A stretch of DNA of 64,000 nt from Lophium mytilinum (lineage: Eukaryota), in assembly GCA_010093605.1 (NCBI GenBank), contig MU004184.1, positions 126,179 through 190,178 on the forward strand, read 5' to 3'. Positions 4,598 through 62,888 of the stretch are shown one piece after another. The notes under the pieces are model-generated. The model did not search any database, was not told the origin of the DNA, and saw only the letters and a list, made by a program, of their open reading frames with translations. The translations under genes were made by a program, and so were the position numbers. How positions within the stretch are numbered: the stretch's first letter is position 1; each line of letters opens with the position of its first letter.

Positions 4598-7500
4598 ATT
4601 GACGAAACGGATGGGAAACGATGATATAAGGGCCGAGTACAGCGAAAAGAATGATAGAGCTTGTTGAAACGAAGAATGATTGTAAAAGTTCGAATCGAAA
4701 CTGGACGCTTGTGGTAAAGGGGAAGAATCCCTTGCAGTTCAAACAAAGCTCTGCGACACCCATCGACCAGTATTTATTCTTCCTCGCGCCCTCCCAACCT
4801 CTGGTAGGAAAGATTCCGAGGCATGACTATAGCGTGTAGTGGAAGATGCTGCGCTAGCCCGTCTACTTCCCCGACGTCCATGCATCTCGTGTCCACGGGA
4901 GTTGTTTCGTGCTTTAGTCAAAAGCAGCATCCATGCTTCCCTCGGCAGTGCTTCCTCGATGCTGTTGCTGATAGGTTCAAAAAGGTCATCGCAAGCGGCA
5001 GACTGGGATAGCCTAGATTGGCGACGCCAGCGGAGCGGAGCCGACATTGCACAGGCTGTCGTGGGACGGGAGCGACCAGGGACGAGGCGTTGACAAGTTA
5101 TCTGAAAGAACCACTCAAATCAGGAGATAGGTGCCAGGATGTTCATTGTCGATGGGTCTGCCCGGAGGACACTTGAAACGAGTATTGTTTCGCCGGGTAG
5201 AATAACGTGTGATCTTAGTAAAAGGTGTTGGCGATGCCTCGGATACTCTCTTTCTAGATAGTTGCCGAAGGTGCTAAAAGTTTGTTATATAACAATGTAG
5301 ATCAATGCGGGGAAGATTACGCTGCGTTTGCGCGGGGTAGTGTGCCTGACTTAGACGAAAAGGTCGGATGTTGAGGAGGTGTCCGCGGACTGGAAGATCA
5401 TCAACCTCGGCACGTTTCATGTCAACTTAGCGCCCGTTTGAAACGTGATTCATGCAGCCTTAATGGCGCCGTGGCACGTCGGAACTTGGGGCGATTGTTC
5501 CAAGATCACCCTTGCATGGTTTTGGGGATCACGGCGTTGAGTAGTGGGACGTGCATTTCCTGGGAGAGTTTGATCTTGAGGGACACAACAAAAAAAAAAT
5601 GCGGACGCTGCATAAGGTAGAAATCTTAGCTACTCTGTAAACTGTGGCCCTCTAGCTAGAGGAGATGTTTCTTCTAGTCGCAGCAAGGCTGGCTCATAGC
5701 AAGTCGAAAGATGCGTGTGGTGTTATGATCGAGATGGTGACATCAATACTCCGAGCGGATGCAATTGAGAATGAGTGGCGTTATCTGATTATAGAGATCG
5801 AGCTGCTAGAAGCAGCAATTTCGTGCGTTGAGGAACCTCTCACGGCACTTGAACGGTTCAATCTTTTCCACACCCCCTCAGCGACCGCACCGAACAAGCA
5901 TCACAGTGTTACAAAAATCGATTTGTGGTTCTCGTATCATTCTTTGCCATCCAATAACCTAGCATTCTTCTCCGCTCTTCCTTCCCTCCAGCGGACTGGT
6001 CAGCACGACCTGCCTCTTCGCCGCGACCTACCTCAACTCCTACGCCGTCAACCCTCTGCCACGAAAAGGCCTGCGGCACACCTTCAAAACCGTCGACCGG
6101 GCTCAGAATCTTGGTCCCATCCGCAGCTGACATCGCGACACCCTCTGCCCGCTGCTGTCAAGACATTTTTCAGCGACCCAGTCCTGTCTAGCAACGCACC
6201 GCCTCACTTTTCACCTCCGCAACTTCAAACTTCTACCTCAAGATCTGGACTGCGATATCATGCGCCCCGAGTTGATCTATAGCTACAAAGGCGCTTGCTG
6301 AAGAAGAGTTGTCTTAGCGGTTTGACGAAGTCCGCAAGATCCGCGCGCTTCAGGAAATTCTCCTCCTTATCGCTCAGATAGAGGAAAACCGACTCCCAGT
6401 TTTTCTCGAGTCCAAAATCTGGACAGGCCATCACAGTCGAGGACGACAAATGCTAGCTCTCCGAACGTTGAATATGCCAATGCCATTATGACACAATGGG
6501 GTTTGCCACATTGGACTTGAGATCGAAACCGGATATAGATCTCAACGATTCGAAGCTTCTACAGCACATTGACCAGACCGAACATCTACATGGAACGAAA
6601 GAGACACGAGGTCTCGGGCACAACTGCCCCCAAGGCCGAGCTAATTCAAGACATATGGGAGATGGAGCTATGATTCCCTGTTTGCTCGTCAAGCAATGCA
6701 TTGTCTGGTGCAGCGCGCTGAGCGGGGCGGCACTGATAGTAGCAATCTTCGTGGACGGCCAGTACATACGGATATATTTCCAGAGCGTCCTCAGATATAG
6801 GCCAGCACAGGCTGCTTTTCCACGAACCGACCGATTACGAATTTGCGACGGCCGGCAAATTTGAAGACGGAACAAGCTTCACCTTCCCCCAAGGCCACCT
6901 CTCGTACATGAATGCGCTCTTCTTCCGCGCCCTCCTCCGAGAAAGATCGCCACTCATACTTCCGTTCCTTCAACAGCGCTCAAGCGACAGACCTTCAACA
7001 TGTCGCACGCGTACAAAAAGCCCACCCAGTCATTTCCTGGCTTTGGTGGAACAAGATCCGACAAGCAGCAGGCTCGCCGTCCGACCCTAGACTGGACATC
7101 ATCTCCACAAGCCATCGAAGCTCGTCGCCTGCCGCTTGCCGCGCTCTCTACACTGGTCTCTCATCACTAAATCTCACCAGAAGCAACGATGGCCGGTCCA
7201 GCTAAAAAGCGCGCTCGGGTGGAGCAGAGCAGCAGCAGCTCCTCCGATGATCAGAAGTCGTCTCGCAATGGCGGTTGTGAGGGTAGTCCTCAGCGTTCGT
7301 CCCTGACCACCCTCCAGCGTGCCTCACCGCAATCCATTCCACGCGTCGATGACAACCGGGACACGCAGGGCGGCGTCTCCGGCCGTCGGCCTCTGCCAAT
7401 TGAATATTTGAACCTGCGCAACCTGTCTGATGCTCTGGGTATGATGGGATGGGCCGCCGCTTCATATTGTGATGAAGATGGAAGCGAAAATGTGCTCACT

Positions 7501-9369: not shown

Positions 9370-9720
9370 GACTACTTATAGGCCGTCATCGTCACAATAA
9401 ATCTATCTCCACAAGGTCGTGAACATCGCGATACCGCTGTTTGACGTGCCTCTGTACATTCTCTGATTTGTGTCTAAACTCCAGCTATGGCCCTCACGAG
9501 CTGAAGGACTCTTGAGCTCTGTGACCGCAAGCAGTTGTTAGGCCGTTATCGCCACAATCAATCTCTCGCAACAAGCCCGTGGACATCGTGACACGGCTGC
9601 TTGGTATGTCTCTGTACGTTTTTTTAAATGGATTCAAAACTCAGCTATAGACCTCTCGATCTGAAGTACTCATAGACTCTGTGACCGCAAGCATTTGTGA
9701 CGCCGTCATCGTCACTGCCA
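9370..9720. repeat. Degenerate 160-bp tandem repeat, about 2.3 copies
   Basis: GCCGT(C/T)ATCG(T/C)CAC at 9382, 9542 and 9702. CTCTGTGACCGCAAGCA at 9517 and 9677. Confidence 0.75.
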
Positions 9721-17304: not shown

Positions 17305-17313
17305 TATATATTT
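17305..17313 (+). promoter_or_regulatory. TATA box of U6 copy 1
   Basis: TATATATTT 30 bp upstream of the U6 start; the same motif sits at the same distance in copy 2. Confidence 0.85.
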
Positions 17314-17334: not shown

Positions 17335-17438
17335 GCCTTCGGGCATTTGGTCAATTTGAAACAACACAGAGAAGATTAGCATGGCCCCTGCACTAAGGAT
17401 GACACGCTTTATCAAAGAGTAGCTTCAAAATTTTTTTT
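17335..17438 (+). ncRNA. U6: U6 spliceosomal snRNA, intronless copy
   Basis: 5' hairpin GCC-TTCG-GGC, internal A-box-like TGGTCAATTTG, ACAGAGAAGATTAGCATGGCCCCTGCACTAAGGATGACACGC core, and a T8 terminator at 17431-17438. Confidence 0.97.
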
Positions 17439-17462
17439 GTGTTTTGTTTTGTGCTTAGACGA

Positions 17463-17472
17463 GGTTCGAGCC
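17463..17472 (+). promoter_or_regulatory. Downstream Pol III B box of U6 copy 1
   Basis: GGTTCGAGCC about 25 bp after the terminator, conserved in copy 2. An extragenic downstream B box is the known architecture of S. cerevisiae SNR6. Confidence 0.85.
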
Positions 17473-20128: not shown

Positions 20129-21142
20129 CTACACCCTAGTCACAGAAAATACGACCTTCCTCTCATCTAGCTGCTCTCGGTGCGCATCGCTCAGCTCCTC
20201 GTACGGCACCTCCCGTCTAATCTTCTCCATCTTCTGGTGGTGCTCCGCGTTCCACCCCGCCCAAACGTCCACCTTGACCCCCTCTGCGTCCGCCACACGA
20301 TGCCACAACGCGGCCATGCTCTCACAATTGTGCCTATAAACGTACTTCTCCTCGCCCTGCCTACAAAACGGCGGTTCAAGTTTGTCATTCTTCGCCGTGA
20401 GTGTCCCCGTCTGCGTGCCAATGACCATCGCGCCCGGTTCCTTCTTCAACAACTTGAGGATGTTTGCGGCAGCCTCTTCCTGCTGCTCCAGCGGCCAGAT
20501 ATGTAGGAACATGGACACGTGGACGAAGAACCAACTGCCCCGCGTCTTCAAGAGCTTATCCTCCGCGTCGTCGTCGGCGGCGAAGATGTTCCCCTGAATA
20601 TAGTGCCCCCGCGTGAAGCGGTCCAAGTCACGGAACAGCGCGTGGCCTGCGGCCTCGAAGTCTAGGAGGTCGGCGCCGAGGAGGGCAGGAATAGGGGCGC
20701 CGTCGTAGGCCAGCTTGCGGAGGTCTTGGCCGAGGCAGGTTCCGAGGTCGAGGAGCTTGTACGGCGGGTTGGGGTCGTTGTGGGACTGGAAGCGCAGCGT
20801 GTCGAGGATGTGGGTGTACGCGGGGTGGCGGCTCAGGGAGAAGGTGAGGAACCAGAACTCTCCGATACAGGGCCAGGGGGAGATTGACCAGGCGGCGTCA
20901 CGCTAAGAAGCAGTGTTAGCTTGAGTTCTGGACAGAGAGTGTGGGAAGGTAAGTAGGAAGGGGAGACGTACAGCGCGGAGGATGTGAGCTTCGACCTCGT
21001 CGGGTCGGATGTCTGAGTACTGGATGAAGAAGAGCTTGACTTCGGCGAGCTGGTTGGGCTCGAGTTGCTCGGCGTACCAGGGCACGCTGGTGGAGCGGGC
21101 GGCGGAGTCGGCGGGGAGGTTGATCAGGCTGTTTGAGCTCAT
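20129..21142 (-). CDS. Class I SAM-dependent methyltransferase (AusD/Trt5-like fungal family), exons 21142-20972 and 20902-20129
   Basis: A 69-nt intron GTACGT..GCTAAC..TAG joins the exons to give ..AHILRA|RDAAWSISPWPCIGEFWFL..HPAY..LLDLGTCLGQDLRKLAYDGAP..GADL..GHALFRD..GNIF..SMFLHIWP..YRHNCESMAALW. Confidence 0.92.
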
Positions 21143-34039: not shown

Positions 34040-34590
34040 ACGGACGACACATCGACCATAGCACCTAGACACCCCCATCTGTCCAGCAGTGCCTCGATCC
34101 GATCGATGTGACGGTTCCGGTCCCTACTATCGCCGGCAGACAAGCGGCTGCTCAAGCCACCGGCAGTGGAAAAGCGGCTACTCAAGCCACCGGCAGTGGA
34201 GAAGCGGCTGCTCAGAATCTCCACCATTTCCTGCTGAACCGTATGGTCCCCAACCAAGAGCACATCGACCACAGCACCTAGATACCCATCTGTCAGGTAG
34301 TGCCTCGATCCGATCGAGGTGACGATTCCGGTCTCTACTATCGCCGGCAGACAGGCGGCTGCTCAAGGTCTCCACCCCTTCCTCACTGAACCAAGTGGTC
34401 CTCACCGACGGCACATCGACCATAGCACCTAGATACCCGTCCGCCATGCAGTGCCTCGATCCGAGCAAGGTGACGATTCCGGTCCCCACTACTGCCGGCA
34501 GACAAGCGGCTGCTCAGAATCTCCACCCATTTCTTGCTGAACCATGTGGTCCTCAACCAAGAGCACATCGACCATAGCGCCTAGATACAT
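34040..34590. repeat. ~151-bp tandem repeat (3.2 copies) with an internal 27-bp sub-repeat expansion in copy 1
   Basis: CATCGACCA(T/C)AGC(A/G)CCTAGA at 34050, 34263, 34414 and 34566. AAGCGGCT(G/A)CTCAAGCCACCGGCAGTGGA repeated within 34142-34215. Confidence 0.9.
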
Positions 34591-38800: not shown

Positions 38801-41139
38801 TTCGAGTCCGAAAACTGCATCTCTTAACGTCTCCTCAACACCAAGCTGGCATCGCGACTTGGCATCGGCCGAAGTTTACCCGAAACTTGCCCCTTGCCTA
38901 CGGGCACAGCACAAGATCGCCTCCTAGGGCATCGATACTTCGCACGGAGGATCAGATGAGCATGCGAAACAAGCTGGTGGGCCTTGTTTCCGCTTCATTC
39001 GACTCCACCTCGCTGGCCGACGTCTGAGCAGGCTGCGGCATCCTGACTCCATCGGGTCCATGGGCATTCCCAGCGAGCATGGACAGGTAAAACCGCATCG
39101 TAGGTCGAAGGTAAGGTCTTCTGCATAATCTCAATGGCATCTCACGCCCGAGTCAGCTTCTGGACGCTTGAAGATCATACCTCATCGTCAAGATCACCCA
39201 TCACAGTTAGGAATCGTGTTTCGTTTACGCAAATAGTCCGCGTCGCTTGGACTTTCTCGTCCTTCTGCGCGCATATCTCCTTCATCACGGACTCAAGCGG
39301 TATCTCAATGCCCTCGACGTCTTTTCCCTTCTCTCGCCTCCCATGGTAGGTTCCGTTTGCTCGTCTCTTGGCACCCATGGTGCTTCCAGACCATCTTTGC
39401 TTCAACTCTTGCGTCCATCTCTTTCTCTTCTGTCTTGTGGATTGCCTCCGGGTGTCTATGCCTCTGGGTTGGCATCTCTTTCGATTTTGTCGTGGCCTGC
39501 TCGGGCCGCCGTGTTTCAGCATCTTCAATCGTCATATCTCATCCGTCGATCGCGTTCGCTCTCCACCCATGTTAGATGCCATGTCATTTTCTTGAGGCCT
39601 TTTCTTGCGCTGAAGGCTTTTCCTTTCTACCTGCTCATCTCTTTCTTGGTCCTTATTCTCGTCTCAATGCTTCTCAGTCTTTTGCATATCACGTGACTAA
39701 CTTCATCATACCCCATCATAGGAATCAAGCTAGGTCGACTCAAGGGGAGGTTTGCGCATGATGGGAGCTGATGTCGGCGTAGAAAGAAGCGACTCTGCAT
39801 GAAGGTAAGCTGGAAGTGGGCCCAAGGTAGATATTTCTCTTCTCGGGGTTTGGTCGTTTTCCATACCAGTTCCAGATCAACTCTCCCGCTCGCGATCCGT
39901 CGCTTCCATGGTCTTTGGGGATTTATGCCTTCGTTAGCTAATGCGCCGTCACCTTCCTTTTCATGTCTTGATCCTTCTCAACTTTCGTGACGTCTTCAAC
40001 TTTCTTTTCACGTCGTGAACTTCATTTTCCTTGCACGTCCATCAGCTTTCGGCATGTCTCGGTCGCTGTCTGCTTTCAGATCTTCGGGTCTCGCTTCTCA
40101 TGCTTTCAGAACGTCCCGTCGCATGATTCTTCCGTCTTCATACGTTCATAGCTTTTTCAGCTCTCGCCTTTTAAAGGGTAAACCTTTCATTTCCAATGGC
40201 CCATGCTCTTCGTCCGCTTCCAACATTGGAATCCTAGCTAATTTGATGTGGGGGCATGCACGATCGGAGTTGGCAACCAAAGGTATTTCATGTGGAGTGG
40301 AGTTTGGAAACCTCGAAGGTGGGTCCAGTGAAGGTAGGATACCATCTCGGAGTGAGATCGTTGCTCGTTCCAGCGCTTTACGAATGCCAATGGCGAGTGA
40401 GGCATCTACTTTTCGAAGTCTTTCTGTCAAGCTTTCCTCCTGGTCATTCTTCATGCTTCCGATAGCTCCTTGTCGACTCAGTCATTGGCAGCCCATCAGT
40501 GGTTCCCTTTAGACTACATTTTCTCAGCCTCTTCTTCGTTCCCGTGCTCCTTTCCGCTTGCTATCTTTCATCGCGTCTTCAGCCCATTCCTGATTCGCTA
40601 TTCTTGTCGCCGACACTAGGTAGGCATTCCTTCCGGACACTCTCGGTGCACCGATGTTCTCTCCTGAGGTCATTTTTCGCGCTGGAGGCCTTTCTGCTTG
40701 ACTTCGCGTTTCGTCTTGCTCTCGATCAAATTTCTTTCGGCTCTTCAGTTGCAGCAACGAGTAGATTTCTTTCCCGCACACCTATAGTGCACCGATGATG
40801 CTCGTCTTGACGTCTTTTCGTGCCTTGATGGCAATTCTGCGTCGTCGGTTTCGTTCTTCGTCTCTGTATCACGATCAGCAGCCAAGCCTTCCCTACCGGA
40901 CACCAATGGTGCACCGACGACTCGTCATTTTCTAGGCCTCGCTCTCTTCGGTCATCCGAGGTAGTGGTCGAGGGATATGTCGGGTGGGTCTCCAAGGTAA
41001 GAAAGCACGGTAAGGTCTCCTCCACTTTCATCCCATCCTCATCGAACGTCAACGGTGCTCCGACACTTCGAACTCCGCTAGACTCTATCCTTGCTCTTTT
41101 CGCATTGCTCGACCAAAATTCTTGTCGTACTTTTCCAGC

Positions 41140-41990
41140 CGAAACCAAGTCATTCTGTCGGCATCCGTCACCTATGGTGCGAGTGTAAGCCCGAGTTGCT
41201 CTGTTGGACACAACTCCACGCTATCTCATGCTTACCGTTCTCGCTCACCCTTCAGTACAGCTTCACTCTTCGATGATGGTGTCTCCCTGTAATTCCTGCT
41301 CGGTCAATGTCACTTCTCCCAGCTTCTGGTCGTCCATGGCGCCAGTGCAAGTCCGGCTTCGTCTTTCTTTTCCTCCCACTTACCTTCAGCGCTTTCCACC
41401 AGCATGGCTCCGTTCTTCTGCCCATGGCGTGTCCGCTTGTTGCTTCTGCTTCCTCGAGTCCTACCGGCATCCGCTACCCGTGGCACGAGTGTAAGCCCGA
41501 GTTGCTTTGCTTTGAATTGCATCTTACTTACCGTCCTCGCTCATCTCTCGGCACAGCTTCTCTTATCTGCGCACGGCGCATTGGTAGGTCATTTCTCTTT
41601 TATCTGAGTCGATTCTGCCGGCACCTCGTCGCCTTTGGCGCAAGTTGTAAGTCCGCATGCTCTTGCTTTGAAGTCTCTCATGTCTACCGAGCATACTCAT
41701 CGCTCAGAACCGGTTTGTGTTTCCATTCAAGTATCATTGGAAATGTCTCCAGTTTCATCGAGGTCGTTTTTGCCGGCTTCTCGTACCACGGTTGCGAGTG
41801 TAAGTCCTGAATGTTCTCGTCTCTCGAAATGGATTTGTGTTTCCGTCCAGGGCATTTTCTGGCGTGTTTCGGAATCCCCCCTAGTGTCGGCCATGTCGTT
41901 TTTGCCGGCATCTCGTACCACGGTTGCGAGTGTAAGTCCGGGTTGCTCTTGTCTTGTAGTCTCACGCTTACCGTCTGCGCTCACCCCTCA
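41140..41990. repeat. Degenerate 130-155-bp repeats with a CGAGTGTAAG(C/T)CC core
   Basis: Cores at ~41180, 41486, 41640, 41795 and 41927. GTCGTTTTTGCCGGC.TCTCGTACCACGGTTGCGAGTGTAAGTCC occurs twice. Confidence 0.8.
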
Positions 41991-43149
41991 GCTTGGTCTC
42001 TTCATCCGCCCATAGCGGCTTGCGTGTCTTTCCGGTTGCTTTATCTCAGGATCCAATTCTTGAGCTCCACCGCTTCTCGGACGTCGCTGGCGTTGACCCA
42101 CGCGCTTACACACATTTTGCACTAAACTTTCAGCTCGGCGTGACCTACATACCGGAGTGCTCGCATGCCGTTCTCGGCTGGTCAATTTTGTCTCTTTGCG
42201 ATGTTTCTTGAGGTTTCTCCCAGGAGAAGTCCAGACCTTTGTGCGGGCGCTTCTGCGGTCGCGCGATGCGCCGACCCTGGGGAGAATCCCAAGGTGTCTT
42301 GAGGGCTGGTTAGGTGTTGCCCGCGAAAGGTGTTCCGAGTCGCCGGCTGGTGGCATCCCCACGAGTCTACGAGGTTTGTCGATACGTGAGTCGTGAAATA
42401 CCTTTTTTTCCCTTTCAAGTCATTCCTCCAATTGTCGTGTTACCTGCGTGGTTTTGCTGTTCTTGTCAGCGTGCAACATCGTCTGTTCCTCATCGGTAGG
42501 CTCTGGGGTCTCTTTACTTTTCAGCATGCGCTTCCTTGTCATCCCGCAGTCTTTACATGTCTCTCGGACCGATGTGTCTACGAAAGGTAGGTCAGTTCCG
42601 CTCGTGGCTCCAGTTCTCGGGCTTGACTATACTCCCGGTGTCGATTTCAATCCTTTGCGGCTTCGCAACGAGGCTTCCCGGTGGTAACGGCGCTTCGATT
42701 TCTTTACACGTCTCACGCATCTTGGCCTTCTCTTCCTCAGGCTTTGAGTTTCAACCTTGGCAGCTCAGCTTGCTAATGGCATCCTTCCACATATCTCGTT
42801 AGCAGCTCGCTCTTTCTCCCTCATTCAGTGTCATAACGTTCTTACCTCTCATCTTTCATTTCTTTCCTCATGATCCGTAGGCCTCGTCACCGTCTCCGCT
42901 GCTTTCGTCTCTTCTTCTTTCCATATCCAGCAGGCAGGCTTTCCCCGAGCAGTTTGTTCTTGGGCACTGCCAACCGTTCTCCGCGCATCTTGATACTCAT
43001 TTCTCTCTGCAGCGGTAAGCGTTTTTCATACGTTTCTGGGGCATCGTCCCATGCTTTCTTGTCGCTCACGCCTCTGTTTTGATCTCTTTCGTTCTGCAGG
43101 TAGGCGATGTCGTATCCGCGTCTTCAATTCTTCCATCCTCAGAGTCATG

Positions 43150-43860
43150 CCAGGTAAGCTTTCCTGAAGTGCGTCTTTCTCGGGCACAGCCTAAACTCTC
43201 ACGCTATTTCTCTCATGTCAACTTTGCGTCTTTCTGGAACGGTAAGCTCTTCTCATACCCCTCCTGGGGGTTCTCACGTGCCCTTCCTTCCGCTGTTCTT
43301 GCCTTCGCTTCGTCTCTTCCGCCCCCCGGGTGTGTGATCGACGTCTTTCTTGGCGTCATCGATCTTTCTGTATTCAAACTCGCACCAGGTAAGCGTGTGT
43401 GGAGTCTTCTTTCTCGGGCATGGATCAATCCTCTCAAGCTATCTCTCTTACGTCAGCTTTGCGTCTTGTTCCGGAACGGTAGGGTCATCTCATACGTCTC
43501 CTGGGTGGGTTCCCACGTCCTTCCTTCCGCTGTTCTGGCCTCCGCTTCGTCTCTTTCGTTTTCCAGATATGTGATTTCCCGCCCTCTTTCTTGGCGTCTT
43601 CGATCTTTCCGTCCTCAACCTCATACCAGGTAAGCTTCTCCAGAGTACTCTCTTCTCGGGCATCGGCCATTCCTCAGCTATCTCTCATGTCAACCTCACG
43701 TCTTCGGCTCAAATCGTAAACTCATCTCATACGTCTTCCAGGCCTTGTCCCATGTCCTTTGCGCTCCTCTTTCCTCCGATTTCGATCTCACTCTTCTGCG
43801 GGTGGGTGATGCTTCTTCGTTCAATCTTTTCTTTTTCGATCATAGCAGGTAGGTCTTTCT
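43150..43860. repeat. ~237-bp tandem repeat, about 3 copies
   Basis: CCAGGTAAGC..TCTCGGGCA..GCTATCTCTC..GGAACGGTA..CTTCCTTCCGCTGTTCT units start at 43150, 43385 and 43626. Confidence 0.8.
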
Positions 43861-46800
43861 TGAGCAAGTCCTCCCGATACATCTCACTGTCGACCATGTC
43901 GGATCTTCCTGTCGAACGGTAAGCGTACCTGATGTCTGTTAGCCGTCGTTTCATGCTTTTTTGTTACTGTCACCTTCATTCCGTGAGTTCCAGTAGGTAG
44001 GCTTTCCTTCAGCAGCGTTAGCTCCGGCATCGGCATTTCCTCAAAGTCTCGTTCTCGTCAACATCGCATCGTACTTTACGAAGGTAGGTGCCTCTCATCT
44101 TTCTTTCGTGCATCGTCCCATGTGGTGATCGTCGTTCCATGATCTCTCCTTGCCGGTCGGTGTCTCTTCTTCTTTACGTCGGAACCCAATTTTCTTCTGC
44201 GCAGGGCATCGCAGGTAAACCGTCTCCGGTAAGTCTTTTCTTGGTCTTCGGGCCTCAGTGCCCTCACTTTATCATCTCGGTTTCCAATGGAGATTTCGCA
44301 TCGCCGGTCATTGCAGTTCAGACCTGATCTCTTCTCTCGCGGTCTCAATTCTTTTCTCAGTACAAGAGGGTATGGTAGGGATTCCATCAAACCTCCAGGG
44401 CTCCGAGCCTACGTTGTGGTGAGTCTTTTCATACTCAACTTCGATGCAAAGGTCTAGATGTCTCGCCGTCTCGCATGCTTCTTCGTCTCTTTCCTAGCCT
44501 CACATTGCATTCATTCCCAGGAAACGCGTCCGTTTTTCCGACAACCCAGGTAAGCAAGGTAGGTATTTCCATTCCTCATCCTGTTCTTTGGATTTGTCCT
44601 CCATGTTTCTTTGTTCTTCTCTGATGTCCCTGTCAAGCGCAATTTGTGAGGCGCTCCGTTATCCCCTCGCCTCGAGGCATCAAATGCATGTTTCTCCATG
44701 CCGTCCCGTCTTTCAATCACTCCGAAAAGTCGTCACATTTGTCTCTTTCACGTCATACTTGTGATATGGTGCATACCACCACCCTCCCCAAGGTATCGCT
44801 GGTCATGTTGGTGTTGCTAGGTAAGGAGATAGGGTCGTTTGACCTCGTGGTCTCGAAGGAGGGATGTAGGAGGTCGGAGGTAGGAAGTAGATAGGCTGGT
44901 ACGATCTCGTTGTGTCGCGGGAGGGAGGTGGGACATAACGTAGGCGGGAGGTAAATCTTCGCTCAATCGCAGGGTGTCGTTTGGGGAAGAGTGGTACGCG
45001 GTCTCGCTCGTGGGTTAAGATTGTGGAGGGTTTCGCATCGTGCAGAGAATGCCTGGATACTAGGTAAGACCCCATCATGTCAGTCTATGCTCCAAGCTAC
45101 TGATGGCATCGAACCTCAGGTCTAACCTTGTCAGATCTAGTCTTCGAAATTCCTGGTTTGGAGTCGCATATGGTACTAGGCCTTGGATCAAGTGGCTTGT
45201 CTCCTTTCCATGTCCGTTGCTAAAGAGGCTATGTCTCCGCCGATCTTCTTTTGGGCTTCATTGGTGTCCTATCTCAAGCTGTCTGCAGCTGAAGGGGTGG
45301 GATGCCAAAATCATGTCGCGAGAGCGCAGGACGGTCTCTGGAGGCCTCTTCGGTACCGGGAGCAGCGATTAGACGTGGGCAACGCTCTCTCGGCTCTTAT
45401 CTATGTGCGTGTGGTTACTCTTTCGAATTTACTTGATCAACTTTGGGCTCTGGGCTGGTTGTCGTGGAGCTGTGGTCTTGCAGGACGCCGTCAAAGCTAG
45501 TAGGAGGGTCAGTCATTGAGGAAGAGTGAAATAGGGATGTTGTTGCCCATAACCTGGCATATATCGAGGTAGGCGTTCTTCTGATATCCCTAGAGCTCCG
45601 TAATACTGACCAATCTTCAGATATGGGGCGGGCCTTGCCGTAATTCAAACTTCCGTGATGGAATGGGGTGTGTCTGGACTCGAAGGCTTAGAGAGGGAGG
45701 GAAGCAGGTCGATAGAGGTTAGTGGACTACTGTGCTCCAAACATTGTGTTATTGAATCAGTTAGATGTTATGGCACGTCGATGGTAGCAAGTCTGGCAAG
45801 GAGAGTTAGCTGTTGGTCTGAAATGATGGAAATCAGTCTAAACATACAGATTGGAGCGGTACCATGCTGATTTCCTAGACCACCAAAGCGGCATGGGTGT
45901 ATGCAGCTTCGGCTCTGCCTATCCTCTGTGTCCGGGAGTCAAGGCGGAGGCCCCCTTTCCGGCTGTTTTGGAAAGATTCACCAAGGTTGCCTCCACGAGC
46001 CATCCAGAGTCTCCAAGTGGACACCGGCAGTGTTTGTGCTTCCCTATCTACCTCCATAGATTACTGTATTTCATAGAAACGCGCCTCTGACTCGATGGTC
46101 TCCGCGGAGGAGTCCGAGACTGGTTTGACGGTCTGGGATAGGGGGCTTCGGCGTCGCAGGCTTTCTCTTCATTGCTGTAGTGTTTGAATCTGTGGTGCCA
46201 AGGAGATATCTGCCGTAAACTGTAAGTTTCATGTTGTCAACATGGGATCCAAAGGAAAGTTGAAAGAGAGACCTACTGTAGGTGGTGTTGACCGAAGAAG
46301 TCAAACCACTCCCGTTTTCTTTTTTGCTCTCCCTTCTCATGACGCCCATGCCCACTGCCCATACTCTCCACAAGTCGACGTCAGCGGGTCCCTCTGCCTC
46401 TTTCCAACGCTCTGTGCTGTCTGCCTCATCTCGACATGGAGGTAGTAGTGTTCTCGGTTTGTATCTGATCTGCACGTTGGCCCCGTAACGGCCCCCTGAG
46501 CGTGGATTTGCTGTCTTGTCTGACCGTCTCGTCCATGTTTCTGCACACTGTCCACTGCCACCTCCTCGCCTCCCCCAGTATCGTCAGTTCGTAGGTTTTT
46601 CTCGGGGCGGAGGTCCGCTACGGACCGTTCACTCTCTGGGAGCCAAAAGACAATTCACTGCGGCCTGCCATACCCATCGGCTTTGCCGATCGCAAAAGGT
46701 GTTCCCCTTGTGCCCTCCCCTCTGTTGTCTTCTCTCGTGGTCTTTGAAGCTGTCGTGTTGCTCTCGTCCCCGCCCCGACCCTCCAGTCTCGCCGCCCATC

Positions 46801-48899
46801 TCCGCCATCCACGCTCTCGTCTCGGGGCTCCGGCAACGACATGGCGATGAGGTTGGCAGCCCGATACCGCTATGGAAACGCATGAGGTGGGTTGGAGTAT
46901 CGTGTAGAGGAGCAGGACGTGTGGCGGAGGAGAGGTTGCGGGGGGTATGACGAAGGTTGAGACGGGAATCCCTCACCGCCAGTCTTGGAGATTCTAATCA
47001 TCATGTTTCTTCGTCTCGGCGGGCTTCAGCTTGATAGCGTGGCCTCTCTTGTTGCTCTGCTGGTATGCCTTGGGTGTGCAGGATGCCGTGCTTGGTGGGG
47101 CAGGTTGTAGAGATGGCGCGGGAGCCTTGGGTCACTTCTCGAATGGCTTTCTTCGCTGAGGTTGCTCAGGGGCGTCGGGGCGATGGCGGAGAGGATTAGG
47201 GTTCTCGTTGGTAGGTAGATGAGAGGCTTGTCGCTCGCTGGATGAAGACGGGCTGCCGTGGCGGCTGGGTGCTGGGCTACGGGGAGGGGTCTGGAGAGGA
47301 GGAGCGGGCATCGTGGGGCGGCCTTTGGTGTTGAGGGGCAGCGGTATCGTGAGCTGCATCGTGGCGAGGGCTTCACGCAAGGGCAATGAGGGTGTTCACA
47401 ATGCATGCAGACATTATAGATACAGTACTTCTTTGGCTATCTGGAGTACTGCCTGAGGGAAGAAAGGGATAGGCAATTTGGGTCCGGAGTGTGTTAGACA
47501 GCCAGCTTCCAAGGCCCTCGCCAAAGGACCTGAAGCCCATGGGTTCAAGGATATTACCGTGGAGGAGGCCATCTCCAGGTTATGTTTTCACCCTTCTTGT
47601 TCTTCACATGCAGCCGCTCGATGTTGTGGGCTGCCCTTGTCCCTCCGTTGTCATATGAGGCTCGCCGCTGGCCCTCTCCGTCCACATCAGAGAGGCTCAG
47701 AGGCGCCCGGCGCTGTCCCCTGGAGCCACCAGGAAGTATACGATGTCGTCCGTTAAGAAAGATGATACGGTATCGTAATGCGGAGGTGTGCGGAGTTCGT
47801 GAAGGTAGGGAGGCCATCCTGAAAGCTGGAGTCAGTGGGGTCAATGGAGTCAATCTTTTAACGGCTCGAGGTCCTGTAGCACCAGCTCGTGTCTTATGGT
47901 GTACCCTCGATCTCCGAGAGTCTTCGCCCTCTCCGAGAGTGTCTCCGCTGTCTTCTCCCGGTCCGAGGGCTCACAGAACGCGGTGGCGGCGTCTCGCTCC
48001 TCGATCTCCTCTCCCGCTCGCTGGAGGCAGCCTTAAGACGGACAATGGGTAGGCGGGCTTCGGCGGCCTCGATTGTACCTTGTTCATGCGTAATGCTTCG
48101 TGGGAGGGCCTGGCAGGAGTGGGTGATAGTGGTTGGAGGCTGCGCGGTCGGGTTGAAGTTGGAGAAGAGCTGCGGGCATCCTTTAGTGTTCAGGGGCGGG
48201 CAGCATCGCCAACGACCGCAGTGCGACATCCCCGCGCTTCAATTCTCAGCCTCAGCTAGATGGTATGATGCAGCTGAGGCTATATATTTCTGTATTTGGC
48301 ATTTTGAGGCCTGAGAGACGAGCAAAGGGGCGAGGGCATGCTAATGCGGTGGGGTCGCCCTGGTGGTCGTGCGACCTTTGCCTCCTGCGCTGAGGATGTC
48401 GGGCTCCTCAAGATTCCGATCCCAGCCACGTGTGAAGCCCGGGGGAGATCATGATGGTGTTGCTTTGAAGTGACGATGGGAACAAATTTTGAAGACGCAC
48501 ATGGCGAGACAAATTCAACCCTCCAGCAGCGAGGCATTTCTCCGCGTCTGACCTGCTTGAGATGAGCATGTAGGGCATTGGATAGGGACCGCGACTCTTC
48601 ATAGACAGACTGCTACTCGAGTCACAATGTAAAACAAATTTCGAAGCTGGACAGTGTCCTTGGTGTCGCGATGCTCTGCTGTTACTTCGTGATCTTGCTT
48701 CCGGCGTTAGCAACTCTCGTCTTTTGATTCTTTCGTGGGTATGACATGGCCATACGACTCCCATTCGCATCGTTTTCCAACTCGCAATCATCACCAAGGC
48801 TTCCAACGGACAAGATCATCTCACTTAGACTTCAGTCGAAGATCAGTCATATCACAGCAGATCACGATTGCAAGGAAGATTGGAGTTTTTAGAGTTTTT

Positions 48900-50700
48900 A
48901 ATTTGCTAGAAGCCTTGGCCGGCCCAGTCCCCATGAGTCTTTTCGTAACATATACACCATATTGTGAGTGGTGATTGAGGACTGGACCGGCCGTGGCCAT
49001 GACGTCCACACCCGGGTCCATGACCATGACCGGCCTGGTCCCACTTGCGGAGCACGGTTACCCGTGATCGTCGCTGTTGGAGAAGATGGTTAGCAAGGTG
49101 AGGTTGAAAGAGGATAAGAAGTGGAAGAAACTCACTAGCAGACTAGACCGGCCATGGCCATGACATCCACACCCGTCTTCCGCCGTGACCGACCAGGTCC
49201 ACCGCACCGGCACATAACATATACACCGTGCTCGGTACTATTAGAGCGTCAGCAAGGTGAAGTCGGATGAGAAGAAGAAGGGTTGGAATAGGACTCACCG
49301 GTGATCCGGGTCGGTCACGGCCATCCCAAGCCACTCTCTCATCAAGCGCCCTAATCGATCCGGCCCACCGCACCAGAACATAACATATACGCCGTGCTCT
49401 GGGCTGCCAAAGGGTCAGTAAGGCGAAGTGCATAGACCAGAAGGAGGAAGAAGACTCACCGGTGGGACCGGATCGACCCGGGAACCACAAAACCACTCCA
49501 TCATCCATCGAAATGTGACCGGCCTGGCCCACACGGACATAACATATACACCGTGCTTGTCTGGTGAAGTGTCAGCAGGTGAAGTGGAAGAAGGATAGGT
49601 TGGAAGAAAGAAAACTCACCAGGGTGGACCAGGCCGGCCACGTCCCAAGAAGCTCCATCACCCGAAGGCATGGCCGACCTGGCTCCATCGCCGGGAAGGA
49701 GTCCAGGCCGACCAAGCCGCTGAAAAAAAACGCACCATTGCCCGCAGGCATGACCAGCCTGGCTCCCTCGCGGGGAAGAAGCCCAGACTGGCCATGCTGA
49801 GGGACTTGTCGACGAGTCGCCTTGACTGGAGTCAGCCGTGGTGGCGGCGGCGGACATTGCGGGGTGGAGGAGGGTAGGTCGTCTCGGGTTGAGGTGAAGA
49901 CGCCCGCGTTCCATGGGAAGCTGACTGGTCCAACGCGTGGTTGGTTCATGCCTTGTTCGGTAACCGGGGTGGGAGGTTGGGAATTGCCGGTCTGCGAGGC
50001 CCCGCTGCGTGAGACCTTTCGGTGCGGTTGAATGTCATTTAGCCACGAGGAGGACTGGCGGCGCGCAGCCTGCGTGTCCCGGTTGCCATCGACGCGTGGA
50101 ATGGATTGCGGTGAGGCACGCTGGAGGGTGGTCGGGGACGAACGCTGAGGAGGACGGCGAGCCTGCTGCTTGTCGAAAATACCCGCAAGCATGACCAGCC
50201 CGGCTCCCTCGTGAGGAAGAAGCCCAGGCTGGCCATGCTGATGCAGGCGGATCGACATGTCGCCTTGACTGGAGGCAACCTTGGTGGCGGAGAACCGGCG
50301 GCGAAGGACCGGTACCGGGTAGCCTGGTCGAGTATGGGAGGATGAGTGGGCGTGTGATCTTCCACCTTGACAGCATACTCGGACAGACGAGGGTCGAGCG
50401 GGTTCAGCGAAGAGGGTGGCCGAGCAGGACCGGGATTTCTAGCATCTGAGCCCACGGCGTAGAGTTCGATGAGGCTCGGAGGAGGTCAAGGCCACTGGGG
50501 TGGGTCGGGGCCGGTTTTGGCCTCGCTGTCGTCGGCTGTGGTCAACTGGGGAGTGTTAGTGAGAGCGACCAGAGGCGGGTGAAGTGAAGAGGTGATGAGA
50601 CAGACGGAAGGAGGACTCACTTGACCAAATGAGGATGAGGAGGATGGATGAGGAAGAGTCGTGATGGAGGAAGATTGAAGTGGGTGATTGATGGAGGAGA
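48900..50700 (-). other. Multi-intron transcription unit (gene, pseudogene or lncRNA) with tandemly duplicated exon+intron modules
   Basis: Introns GTGAGT..(G/A)CTRAC..YAG at 49619-49561, 49459-49404, 49298-49238 and 49135-49074, plus one at about 50620-50545. The exons share AGCACGG(T/C)GTATATGTTATGT. Confidence 0.7.
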
Positions 50701-52872: not shown

Positions 52873-53180
52873 ACACTTGTCCCCATGGCAATGCGGGGAA
52901 AGCATGACGTTCATGCCAGAAGGCATTCGTCCCACCCGCTCCAGGGCTGATCCCGACATGGTGGGCACGGTACTCGGAGCCAGCTTTCTTGACCATGCCT
53001 GGTCCTTGCGGGCGCTCATGTCTTTGATCTCGTCTTCGCACTTGTTTCCGTGGCAGTGCGGGGAAAGCACAACGTTTCCGCCAGAAGGCAGTCGTCCCAC
53101 CCGCTCCAGGGCCGATCCCGACTTGGTGGGCACGGTACTCGGAGCCAGCCTTCTTGAACATGTCAGACTGGATGGTCTCG
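52873..53180 (-). pseudogene. Tandemly duplicated, frameshifted C-terminal fragment of prolyl-tRNA synthetase
   Basis: ETIQSDMFKKAGSEYRAHQV and, in another frame, NVVLSPHCHGNKCEDEIKDMSARKDQ. A ~125-bp direct repeat lies at 52873 and 53039. Confidence 0.7.
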
Positions 53181-55460
53181 GAGAGAAAATGAGGTTCGAG
53201 GACGTCTTGCTGGAGGAGCATGGCGTTGGTTCAATGGCGGATCCGAAGCAGGATTGTTCGAAGGCAGATTTCTTCGCTTGCAGAGGCTTTTGAGAGAGAG
53301 GACGTTCGTTTGGGAGAGCGGTGGCAGGAGTAGGCGGCGAGCTCAGCGGCGAGCTTTGGGCGGACAACGGCGGACTACGTGCTGTCAGCATCGGGTTTAA
53401 TGGTACCCCACCCCTTCTGTCCGTCGACCTACGCTTTCTGTGCACGAGAGATCGCTGTTGATGAGGCTGAAGTCGAAGGAGATGGCATGATGACGTGGCC
53501 TGAGACGAGCTGCCTCTTTCTGTGAGGCATGCTGATAGAGCGGGAGACGGTGGGCAGAAAACTCGAAAAATGAACGGCGAAGCAAGGTGCAGACAGAGCT
53601 AGATGCAACACATCGCTCGACCGAGGGCTGGTTGGTGGTCCATGAGGATGCTGAGTATTACGTGGGTGAGGCGGGTCGGGATGATGACATATTTCGCTTC
53701 GGGTCACATGACATGCGCACGTGATTTGTTACTTCTATCATCATTATCACAACGCAATACTAGGAAGGGGATCTCATTGAAGAGTGATACTGGCTCATGC
53801 AATTGAGTCCTTACAACTTCTGTGCGGTTTGGATCATGTCTCGCTCTTCGAGACCGCTCTGCGGCGTGGATAACAAACTCCAGCATTGAGCCCTCCAGAA
53901 CCGGTCCGGTCAGGCGGTCTCAATAGAGGAGTACTTTGCGATTGGCAAGCTTGTTGCGATAGGTATAGGAATGGGGATAGTAGTCGATAGGCAATACTGC
54001 GTGACACTGTAGGGGCGACTACTGCTGGTTAGGTGCGACGCCGCAGGTAAGATACTGGTCACATTGAGGGCGGCAAGAGGTTGTTCACGGCAAAGATTGC
54101 ACAAAATAGGTGAGGACAGTTCTCTTGCGCAATCAGACTCTTGCCTCTCGCAAGCAATTCAACTACACTAACGCATATCCGTCTGTCCTCGGCCTGGACT
54201 CCTGCATTAACGAGGTCGCCTTCGCTTCCCGATCATTGCTCATGATGAGGTCCTCGTCGTCACACTTGCTCTCCACGAGGAGTGTCTCTGTGTTCTCCCT
54301 GGCGCATTGCTCTTGATCCACCACCGTCGGGCCTTGGCCAAGTTGGTCGCGTCCAGTATAGCAATCAGCCCCCGTCCTCAGAGAACCACTTGCACATGAC
54401 GGTGACCGCATCCTCTGCTGCGGCGCGACGAAACCGCGTCCTCCGGGGTTTGTGTTGTCGAAAAACTCTGCGGAGGGGTTTGGGGTGGCGGTACGGTGGT
54501 ACTGGCCGACATTGAAGGTCTCAGCGGTGATGAACAGCCAGTGGAGGTATCTGACGACTGCCCCAGAGAGCAAGGTTAGCGTTAGGTACGTGACATGAAT
54601 CTGTAGCACCCAAGAAGAAGAGGTTTACCTTTCTGCGCAATCAGACTCTTGCCTCTCGCGGGCAAGCCAACCAAACAGCGCGGACACGCGTTTTCTCGAC
54701 CTGCGCTCAGGCAGTGAAAGAGGCGCTGTCCCGGGGTGAAGTGCAGGCCCTCCGGTAGTGAAAGACAACTTGTCTAGCAGTGAAAAGTCTGGCGTGCAAC
54801 AGTGAGAGACGAAGTGTCCTCCTTGTTCATCAGGGCCCCCATGGCCGAAGCGCCTGCCACTGCCTTTGTCCCCGCCGGAGAGAGCGGGAACAGTGATGCC
54901 TTCTTCTTGAGGCGCCCGTCAGCCATGATCCTTCCGTTGATTCCTGGCGTTTGAGCAGTGGCTGGTTCCTAGCTAGGGCTTTTGGGCACGGCAGCGCTCA
55001 ATCTTAGCGTCTGCAGGTTGTTAGCACGATTGTTAAGGACAGGAAGGCGGTGGGAAGAGGCGTCTCTGAGGGCGTACCGAGCTGAGCCTTGCCCATCTGC
55101 GCTAGAGCATATGGGTGCGACATCTGCGAAGGCGAAGGAGCTGCACTGTCGCCAGCTAGGCAGCCTGGCGGTGGCGCTGTTGGAGATGCGCTGTCACTGG
55201 ATGCTGAATGTTGGTGCAAAGACTGAGGTGTGGTGGTGTGTAAGAAGGACGGAGGCGCTGACCAGCAAAGGCGGGGATGAAGCTCCAGGGCGGCGAAGGT
55301 CGATTTTGCAACACCACTCGACGCTCCTAATACCACTTGCAAACCAAAATAATAGTGAGTATAAGATTTCTCTCATTGACAAGAAGAGTAGACCAGTTAG
55401 TAGATAGCGCTGTAGCGATAAAAAAAAGGGGAAAGTAAAAAGAAAACCCACCCCAAGCGA

Positions 55461-55470
55461 GGCTCGAACC
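55461..55470 (-). promoter_or_regulatory. Downstream Pol III B box of U6 copy 2
   Basis: Reverse complement reads GGTTCGAGCC, identical to copy 1. Confidence 0.85.
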
Positions 55471-55491
55471 TCATCCAGCCAAACAAAACAC

Positions 55492-55644
55492 AAAAAAATT
55501 TTTTAAGCTACTCTTTGATAAAGCGTGTCATCCTTAGTGCAGGGGCCATGCTAATCTGACAGATATTAGTTTTGAAGCTGAGTGTTAGGGGGGATAGTGC
55601 ACACCTTCTCTGTGTTGTTTCAAATTGACCAAATGCCCGAAGGC
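55492..55644 (-). ncRNA. U6: U6 spliceosomal snRNA with a 49-nt spliceosomal intron (55604-55556)
   Basis: Reverse complement: GCCTTCGGGCATTTGGTCAATTTGAAACAACACAGAGAAG|gtgtgc...actaatatctgtcag|ATTAGCATGGCCCCTGCACTAAGGATGACACGCTTTATCAAAGAGTAGCTT, then A6 and T7. The spliced product matches copy 1. Confidence 0.96.
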
Positions 55645-55664
55645 GGAGGGTCTTATTTTGTAGT

Positions 55665-55673
55665 AAATATATA
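55665..55673 (-). promoter_or_regulatory. TATA box of U6 copy 2
   Basis: TATATATTT 29 bp upstream of the start. Confidence 0.85.
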
Positions 55674-56590: not shown

Positions 56591-58514
56591 TACTCTGCTG
56601 TTCGCGTTGTCGATTGGCCCGGCAGGCTCGTCTGTTGTTGAGGACCTCGTGGCGTGGCCTTGTGCATGCCGAAGCGGACGCGCTGGCTGAGGATGCAAGA
56701 TTGAAAGAAAGACCGACGGCAACTGAAGAAGACGAAAATTCACTCTCGGAAATCAAGTGAAGAGGTAACGGCAGTGAACGCAAGCCGAAGCAGCTCTCCG
56801 TTTCATCTCTCAAGGGGTATAGAGTCCGCGGTCTGTCGTCTCCCAATCACGAACCGGGAACGCGATGTCGTCCACCAGTGTCGTCCAAGCTTGTATACCT
56901 GCCCGACAGCGTCCATGCGGTGATATAGCTGCTCGTCATTGGGGTTTGTGGTGTCGGAGAACTCGGCCGGGGAGCGGGGGGGCGGGGGGGTTGGATTAGT
57001 AGTGGAGCAGTCGTTCGGTCGGGTTACGGCATCGAAGGAGTCGACGGAAGGCAGGGCGTGGAGTGGCAATGGCGGGTTCGTTCATCTTCTGGTTTTGTAG
57101 TGGCAAGAAACTCGTTGGAGGGAGGTAGGCTGGCAGCGGAGCAGTCGCACGTCTTCCGGACTTGAGGTATCGAGGAATCGGCGGAGGGGTTTGGGGTGGT
57201 GGGGCGGCGGCACCAGCCTTCGTTAAAGGTCTTATCCGTGATGGATAGCCAGTGGAGGTATCCGTCAACCGTTCTCAGGCGATGCCCGCTGGTGTCTGTC
57301 GTCGCCTCCAAAGATCACAGGTCCAAGGACGGTCGAGCCACAGGTAGAGATCCCGTTCTTGACCCAGCTGCTTGGAACACCGCGTCTACTGCCACGAAGA
57401 CCCCTCCGGAAACAGCTAGCTTGAAGGCGTCCAGAAGCTCGGGGAAAAGACAGACATGTGCAGGATGGAAGGTCTGCTTCTTGGCCTTCGAGATCTTTGG
57501 GCCGTCGATTCTGCCCAACTCTTTCCCATTGCCCGCCCGATTCTTCTCCGCAGTGTCGCACGTTATCCTCAACTCGTCCCACCAATACGTGTGATGCTTG
57601 TTTTTGACGGCAGCTAATATATTTTCGATGGATGAGGCTGGCTTCCGAACCCTGAGCGGGATGTTCTTGCTCTGGCGGTGTCAAGGTGGCTGCTCCGTAG
57701 ATGAAGGCTGGAGACGAAGTAAGCCGGGGCGCCATCAAGCTGCCGAAGTATGGCTTGTTTCTGTTCCGATGCCAACACGATCTTCTCATCCTCGGAGTTG
57801 GGAGACTCGTGCGCAGGGTAGGTAGTACTCGGCGCCTAGGTCCAAGGACAAGTTTCAGCGACTCTGCGACAAGTTGGGGACGGGGCGGAGCTCATACCGA
57901 CGGAGTAGTGGTACTGAGAACGGTTCGCCGAAGTAGTGATGCAGACGATGCAGCCCAGGCTCATGAGTATGATGTAGATGTCGTAGTTGGCGTGTTTACT
58001 TGGCCGGAAGCATCGCCAGTCGAGGTTGCTGTGGTATCTATGGCAGCGCGGAGACCAAGAAATGCCTTCCGGTCCCATTGTCTGCTTGTTACTGGCGCCC
58101 TGACTTTATTGTTTTGGACAAGACCTTTTCGAGCTTGAGCGTAGCTCCTCGAGTAAAATGAAGGTGAAAGGAAGGTGAAAGGCAGTTGAAACAGGGGGCA
58201 GAAGTCGTTGGTATGCTGGGGTCCAGCGCGGCTGCAAAGGGGTGGAACTTTTGGTGGAGAAGGCCACGACCGACCGTGACCCCGCGGCATCACTTCCGCT
58301 TCACATGGTGCCCGACGGCTAGAAGAGGGACAACATTCATTGCAAGTTAGACTAAACAGAGCACGATAACTCGATCAACACTTCTCATCACGCTCTAAGA
58401 TGCAAAGTGAAATGACGGAAGGACAAAGCAAGGTTGAATTTGGTATTTCGACGAGGCACTCTCGTCCGCGAGAAGCAGCCCGGCACTCCCATCCATCCGG
58501 AGAAGCCCGGCCCA

Positions 58515-62729: not shown

Positions 62730-62888
62730 CCAGTTCTTGATCTCGACTCGGTGGGCGCCGAAGTCAGAGTCAGCCTTCTTGAACATGTCAGACTGAATAG
62801 TCTCCAGGAGTGCTGGGATGGCGTCCTTCAGGTCTGAGCTGGCTGTCTCTCGAGCTCGGTCCTTGTTGTCGATATCGCGGCGGGAGAG
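62730..62888 (-). pseudogene. Isolated fragment of the prolyl-tRNA synthetase anticodon-binding/C-terminal junction
   Basis: SRRDIDNKDRARETASSDLKDAIPALLETIQSDMFKKADSDFGAHRVEIKNW. It shares CCTTCTTGAACATGTCAGACTG with 53149-53170. Confidence 0.7.

Follow-up and report, generated by a model that had tools for sequence, protein, structure and literature searches.

Introns beside the catalytic core of U6 provided early evidence that U6 lies at the active site and that splicing is reversible, and the U6 intron of S. pombe has become textbook material. That intron was described by Tani and Ohshima (1989), and reverse splicing is its proposed origin according to the U6 review PMC5855946. As the same review relates, a survey of 145 fungal genomes (Canzler, Stadler and Hertel 2016, RNA Biol 13:119) found many unrelated U6 introns; the genomes averaged 2.3 U6 genes each, and a single gene held as many as four introns. 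In that survey most insertions clustered around the ACAGA box and the internal stem-loop, U6 promoters occurred with or without TATA, A and B blocks, and many of the fungal U6 introns appear to be species-specific insertions (PMC5855946). Mixed sets of intron-bearing and intronless U6 paralogs, together with the idea of regulation via splicing, are likewise already in print (Didychuk 2018, citing Canzler 2016; PMC5855946), and the review states that experimental validation of intron-bearing U6 genes is still needed.

Here we describe a pair of U6 genes, one intronless and one intron-bearing, in a 64-kb stretch of Lophium mytilinum DNA (referred to below as the window, meaning the whole stretch that was analysed). 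The genome of this species was presumably published after the Canzler survey of 2016, and the pair is probably not among the genes that it covered. To the extent that the review portrays the surveyed genomes, the window pair resembles them in being multi-copy, in having canonical intron signals at a site near the catalytic core, and in that only some paralogs carry an intron. A preliminary description of this DNA had given S. pombe and Rhodotorula/Rhodosporidium as the known cases, a list that proves too narrow beside the many cases reported from 145 genomes (PMC5855946).

Identification of two U6 genes

A search of the whole 64-kb window with Rfam at gathering thresholds (a score of 44 for RF00026) returned exactly two matches to U6 (RF00026), and nothing else above threshold. 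The two genes and the parts of copy 2 are as follows.

17335-17434, plus strand: U6 snRNA copy 1, intronless (RF00026, 86.5 bits)
55494-55644, minus strand: U6 snRNA copy 2, intron-bearing (RF00026, 56.1 bits)
55605-55644, minus strand: exon 1 of copy 2, U6 nt 1-40, ending ACAGAGAAG (40/40 identical to copy 1)
55556-55604, minus strand: intron of spliceosomal type in copy 2, 49 nt, with GTGTGC 5' site, CCTAAC and ACTAAT branch candidates and CAG 3' site
55499-55555, minus strand: exon 2 of copy 2, U6 nt 41-97, starting ATTAGCATGG (read from the sequence and by comparison with copy 1)

Both copies cover RF00026 model positions 1-105 in the Rfam alignments. Beyond the two U6 genes, a permissive Rfam search of the window gave only 2 sub-threshold matches at chance level, and ARAGORN found no tRNA gene in the window. 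With the intron removed from copy 2, the two genes are identical over nt 1-91 (91/91 in the alignment), and they differ only in the variable 3' tail, where nt 92 is C in copy 1 (17426) and A in copy 2 (55504), and nt 97 is T in copy 1 (17431) and A in copy 2 (55499). The ACAGAGA box, the AGC triad and the GCAUGGCCCCUGC...GGAUGACAC core are intact in both mature sequences (Rfam alignments, copy 2 after intron removal). These results uphold two claims of the preliminary description, namely that an intron-bearing and an intronless U6 gene occur together, for which Rfam supplied both genes and their coordinates, and that the mature sequences match up to the 3' A-run.

The base just 5' of ACAGAGA (17364 and 55615) is C in both copies, giving the motif AACACAGAGA, where the Rfam consensus has U. 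We read this C as a lineage-specific change at a highly conserved position that is common to both paralogs.

With regard to the source of the window, the methyltransferase gene at 20132-21142 encodes a product with 100% identity to an NCBI entry named Lophium mytilinum, and the cutinase at 3784-4597 matches another Lophium mytilinum protein exon by exon; the next best matches of the two, at 85% and 91%, come from Mytilinidion resinicola. Judged by these genes, the source is a filamentous ascomycete, either a member of the Mytilinidiales (Dothideomycetes) or something that cannot be told from one.

Intron signals in the insert of copy 2

The U6 model alignment of copy 2 was broken by a 49-nt insert after ACAGAGAAG (Rfam). 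Two nucleotides stand between the ACAGAGA box and the insert, and three between the insert and the AGC triad. The insert boundaries read gaag/GTGTGC...GTCAG/attagc, where slashes mark the junctions. Because AG stands at both ends of the insert, the boundary is ambiguous by 2 nt, and GT-AG was obtained only with the insert placed after AAG. Read from the sequence, the exon junction AAG/A resembles a proto-splice site. A script that removes candidate GT...AG segments and rescores copy 2 against nt 1-86 of copy 1 raised the score from 93 to 172 upon removal of the insert; the maximum is 172, and the match to copy 1 nt 1-86 is perfect.

The insert has G at +5 and two branch candidates, CCTAAC and ACTAAT, located 29 nt and 11 nt, respectively, from its 3' end. 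CCTAAC, which was absent from the preliminary description, is the better branch candidate of the two, and an AG 6-7 nt after it could compete as a 3' site. No TTTT run occurs in the insert, and Pol III could therefore read through it. Minus-strand reading together with the score of 172/172 after removal bore out, coordinates included, the earlier placement of a GT-AG intron with GTGTGC, ACTAAT and CAG at this site.

As a control for chance, all 127,902 49-mers of the window (both strands) were passed through four successive tests. Starting with GT and ending with AG left 479 of the 127,902, the further demand for G at +5 left 127, and CTRAY at 7-30 nt from the 3' end left 10, 9 of which lacked a T4 run. 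The insert passed all four tests, and the chance rate for this template is ~8 in 100,000. The view that the insert looks like a spliceosomal intron is thus supported.

Three introns from the methyltransferase and cutinase genes served as a sample of host usage. They read GTACGT...GCTAAC...TAG, GTAAGC...TCTAAC...CAG and GTACGA...GCTAAC...CAG, and the first, at 69 nt, is the only one with a measured length. A CTAAC branch was present in 3/3. The GTAAGC and GTACGA donors show that the host does not require T at +6. Within the limits of a sample of three introns from two genes, the length and signals of the U6 insert would fall within the range of host usage.

No donor for the 49-nt intron was found within the window, where its best non-self match spans 12 nt (E 0.12). 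A 10-nt sequence, AGCTTCAAAA, is common to the copy 2 intron (55570-55579) and the 3' tail of copy 1 (17421-17430); with E 1.9 in the window, this sharing is probably due to chance, and the folds below lend it no support. Folding the precursor gave -23.5 kcal/mol with an unremarkable z of +1.3, and the mature RNA gave z +0.5. Pairing of the intron with exon 1 in the manner of a telestem strand was considered and rejected, as the folds gave it no support. The copy 2 intron contains no promoter element, B box included.

Promoter elements and divergence of the flanks

Both genes are accompanied by the same set of elements outside the transcribed part, listed here by position.

17305-17313, plus strand: TATA-like TATATATTT, starting at -30 of copy 1 (pattern search)
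55665-55673, minus strand: TATA-like TATATATTT, starting at -29 of copy 2 (pattern search)
17431-17438, plus strand: T-run of copy 1, 8 T (sequence)
55492-55498, minus strand: T-run of copy 2, 7 T, presumptive Pol III terminator (sequence)
17439-17449, plus strand: GTGTTTTGTTT directly after the T-run of copy 1 (sequence)
55481-55491, minus strand: GTGTTTTGTTT directly after the T-run of copy 2, common to copy 1 (sequence)
17463-17472, plus strand: B-box-like GGTTCGAGCC, 24 nt after the T-run of copy 1 (pattern search)
55461-55470, minus strand: B-box-like GGTTCGAGCC, ~22 nt after the T-run of copy 2 (pattern search)

The TATA-like TATATATTT occurs 3 times in the window against 0.06 expected, with two of the matches at the U6 genes. 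A third exact TATATATTT stands at 48281-48289 (plus strand), and no Rfam family was found near it within 47800-49200. The element GTGTTTTGTTT is possibly a back-up terminator. We take the B block consensus to be GGTTCGANNCC-like. As a pattern, the B-box 10-mer shows no enrichment, occurring 5 times in the window where 2.6 occurrences are expected (13/100 shuffles reach 5), and the evidence for the B box therefore lies in its identical sequence and position at both genes. Any intragenic A block would fall in sequence that is the same in the two copies.

Aligned identity between copy 1 and copy 2 was determined by region:

-150 to -36: 41%
-35 to -1: 63%
exons, nt 1-91: 100%
spacer after the T-run: 61%
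B-box region: 13/14 columns
after the B box: 54%
further out: 32%

The preliminary description had held that the flanks diverge except for the TATA, the tail after the T-run and the B box, and we recovered the same islands between outer flanks of 32-41% identity. Its further claim that copy 1 is not a simple retrocopy likewise stands, as the untranscribed TATA and the downstream B box are present at both loci while the other flank sequence is unalike; since both carry elements outside the transcribed part, neither locus is a retrocopy. Conserved exons amid diverged spacers (~61-63%) and outer flanks point to purifying selection on both loci, the promoter elements included.

Several further observations concern the remainder of the window. 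Pieces resembling the C-terminus of prolyl-tRNA synthetase form a tandem pair, with a third piece at a distance of 9.6 kb (52874-53179, 62739-62804), and pieces resembling 6-phosphofructo-2-kinase flank U6 copy 2 on either side (54467-54558, 57178-57269). From its sequence, the region around copy 2 looks like a patchwork of partial duplications. An inverted pair of 83 nt (7287-7369, plus strand, and 50069-50151, minus strand) is 98% alike with flanks that cannot be aligned, a pattern like that of the U6 pair. It matched no Rfam family; a small element under constraint is one possible explanation, and a short duplication of recent date another. Strand asymmetry is strong over 40001-48000, where the AT skew is -0.37 in the first half (40-44 kb) and -0.20 in the second (44-48 kb), and the short direct-repeat families D9, D12, D15 and D16 lie within the same interval. 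Tandem repeats in degenerate form are also present, with a period of 117 nt at 1450-1867 (D1), of 151 nt at 34074-34588 (D3/D5/D10) and of 160 nt at 9379-9698 (D4).

U6 introns in metagenome contigs

As background for the window pair, metagenome contigs were scanned with a 26-nt exon 1 pattern containing one degenerate position (C or T), which yielded 32 U6 loci with 26 distinct gene sequences. All 32 have T at the position where both window copies have C, and for this reason none of them is a close relative. Intron-like inserts were present in 19/32 loci (12 with one, 5 with two and 2 with three), although donor calls for some inserts in the 5' stem-loop are uncertain; a stricter removal script found introns in 11/32. 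A first mapping by free-gap global alignment was dropped for its spurious inserts in the variable 3' tail. Once the inserts are removed, the tail of each complete locus reads through to a T-run.

Insertion sites among these loci comprise the 5' stem-loop, nt 41/42, 49/50, 50/51 and 60/61, and several places after GACAC. An intron at the copy 2 site, nt 40/41, was found in 0 of the 32 loci, and a pattern scan of the metagenome contigs for a 34-64 nt intron at exactly this site gave 0 matches. The nearest neighbour of the window's site is the first intron of locus L026 (L026:127-552), 1 nt further 3'; this locus has introns at nt 41/42, with a GTAAGC donor, and at nt 50/51, with a GTAAGG donor and a CTAAT branch. 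The S. pombe U6 intron follows GCAUGG, and loci L028 and L026 show an intron at that position. In the environmental fungal U6 genes L003, L007, L009/L020, L021 and L029, which have two or three introns each, the intron after GACACA(TG) resembles that of S. pombe in holding a B-box-like element, GAGTTCGATCC or GGTTCAACTCC. Among the ~30 donors read from the metagenome U6 introns, most are GTAAGT or GTGAGT, and the GTGTGC donor of copy 2 is weaker than any of them.

Searches of public sequencing runs

Public sequencing runs were searched with a 261-nt query sampled as 24 words. Each of the 24 listed runs contained 3/24 words, and the 3 shared words come from the conserved part of exon 2; none of these runs resembles the source fungus. 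At 90% likeness, run X1 gave 6 contigs, which cover 55481-55557 only and contain no joints; they were rejected as evidence of expression. Three of the 6 extend further, showing 4-5 differing letters and then unlike flanks, and by sequence the X1 contigs are U6 or U6-like loci of another organism. Runs X2, X22 and X9 gave no contigs matching the copy 2 region at 90% likeness.

Probable function and origin of copy 2

We propose that both loci would act as independent U6 genes transcribed by Pol III, each with a TATA element at ~-30, a T-run terminator and a downstream B box. Pol III would make a copy 2 precursor of ~150 nt, from which the spliceosome, using pre-existing U6, would remove the 49-nt intron to leave a U6 identical to the copy 1 product over nt 1-91. 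The intron would most likely have been gained in this lineage after gene duplication. We infer transcription, splicing, and the route and timing of the gain from the features described above, on which copy 2 is probably a spliced, functional U6 gene. Left unspliced, a U6 whose ACAGAGA box and AGC triad are pushed apart by 49 extra nt could hardly work. Constraint on copy 2 has been strong, because 91 exon positions are unchanged while divergence of the spacers is near 40%, a reading that covers the time since duplication and not the time since insertion, as a recent insertion into a good gene would look alike. Exon-limited gene conversion could also keep the exons identical.

The foremost alternative is that copy 2 was disabled recently, when a functional paralog received an intron-like insertion that is spliced poorly or not at all, leaving copy 1 to supply all working U6 and copy 2 to decay. 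The GTGTGC donor, weak next to the other U6 introns seen, would fit such a history, as would the two substitutions in the 3' tail and the existence of an intronless paralog, with which loss of copy 2 could be tolerated. Nevertheless, the exons are 91/91 identical, the TATA, terminator and B box are intact, and all splicing signals are present, a combination with a chance of ~8 in 100,000 that a random disabling insert would rarely show. We therefore regard a disabled copy 2 as unlikely.

A second alternative concerns the direction of change. Both copies may descend from an intron-bearing gene, copy 1 having lost the intron precisely through recombination with a cDNA of spliced U6. Precise intron loss through cDNA is an accepted route in fungi, and copy 1 keeps its own flanks, as that route predicts. 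However, an ancestral intron followed by loss takes one more event than gain after duplication, and with 0/32 environmental loci bearing an intron at nt 40/41 there is no sign of an old site. Ancestry with loss is accordingly a distinctly unlikely history. Gain after duplication is the account with fewer events, the lack of a nt 40/41 intron among the 32 metagenome loci fits a lineage-specific gain, and the site between two catalytic elements of U6 is where reverse splicing would be expected to strike.

It had also been suggested in the preliminary description that the pair could form a feedback or bootstrap arrangement. As a selected circuit, this would make copy 2 yield U6 according to the splicing capacity of the cell, while copy 1 guarantees a basal supply. 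An intron-dependent and an intron-independent gene that are both under constraint would suit such a circuit, which the U6 review PMC5855946 also mentions as a possibility. No sequence feature requires this role, however, and the intron has neither a promoter element, unlike S. pombe-type introns with an internal B box, nor notable structure. Furthermore, that many U6 introns are species-specific insertions, as PMC5855946 reports, agrees with their being relics that are neutral or slightly harmful. Selection for a regulatory role is possible, but nothing that we found requires it, and we consider the circuit very improbable as an account of this pair.

A bolder version of the reverse-splicing gain would have the copy 2 intron be young and datable, with a near-identical donor mRNA intron still in the genome and the paralog kept because its output tracks splicing capacity. 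Were this true, recovery of the donor intron would be among the few direct pieces of evidence for insertion of introns by the spliceosome into the RNA of its own catalytic centre, but in this full form the proposal is a long shot. Finally, that the pair is an assembly or haplotype artefact, which the preliminary description had named as a possible undoing of its claim, or that the insert is a sequencing or assembly error, is scarcely credible, because the loci are in opposite orientation and 38 kb apart on one sequence, their outer flanks are only 32-41% identical, the neighbouring sequence differs, and the insert has full intron signals.

Comparison with known U6 genes

The S. pombe U6 gene, as far as the review's account reaches, is like copy 2 a Pol III gene with a short spliceosomal intron beside the catalytic core. 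It differs in being a single gene, such that all U6 must be spliced, whereas the window has an intronless paralog. The S. pombe intron lies on the other side of the AGC triad, while that of copy 2 is 5' of the triad. Moreover, the S. pombe intron holds the B box (PMC5855946), whereas the B box of copy 2 is downstream of the gene and none is in the intron.

For filamentous ascomycetes, a table in a CRISPR review has a row on a U6 promoter of Trichoderma reesei 'with 1st intron'. An intron-bearing U6 gene of a Sordariomycetes fungus comes, like the window pair, from a filamentous ascomycete (Pezizomycotina), but from another class.

In two basidiomycete yeasts, Rhodotorula hasegawae and Rhodosporidium dacryoidum, Tani and Ohshima are said to have described in 1991 U6 introns of mRNA type in the conserved central domain, reportedly with up to four introns per gene and at sites that differ from that of S. 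pombe. Copy 2 resembles these genes in having an mRNA-type intron in the conserved central U6 domain at a site unlike that of S. pombe, although both yeasts, being basidiomycetes, are unlike the ascomycete source of the window.

S. cerevisiae SNR6 is a single intronless gene, whereas the window has two genes, one with an intron. The SNR6 B box lies ~120 bp downstream, and those of the window genes ~24 nt after the T-run. In their general layout, with a TATA upstream and a B block downstream of the terminator, both window genes nonetheless resemble SNR6 as described in PMC5855946.

Our literature search found no paper on Lophium mytilinum snRNA, nor on U6 introns in Dothideomycetes. For the choice of a U6 promoter for guide-RNA expression in related fungi, copy 1 is the simpler of the two. 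As the RNAs of copy 1 and copy 2 can be told apart at nt 92 and nt 97, the pair offers a convenient natural test bed. Compared with the systems described above, what is new here is the species, a tidy pair of U6 genes with distinguishable products and, probably, the insertion site at nt 40/41.
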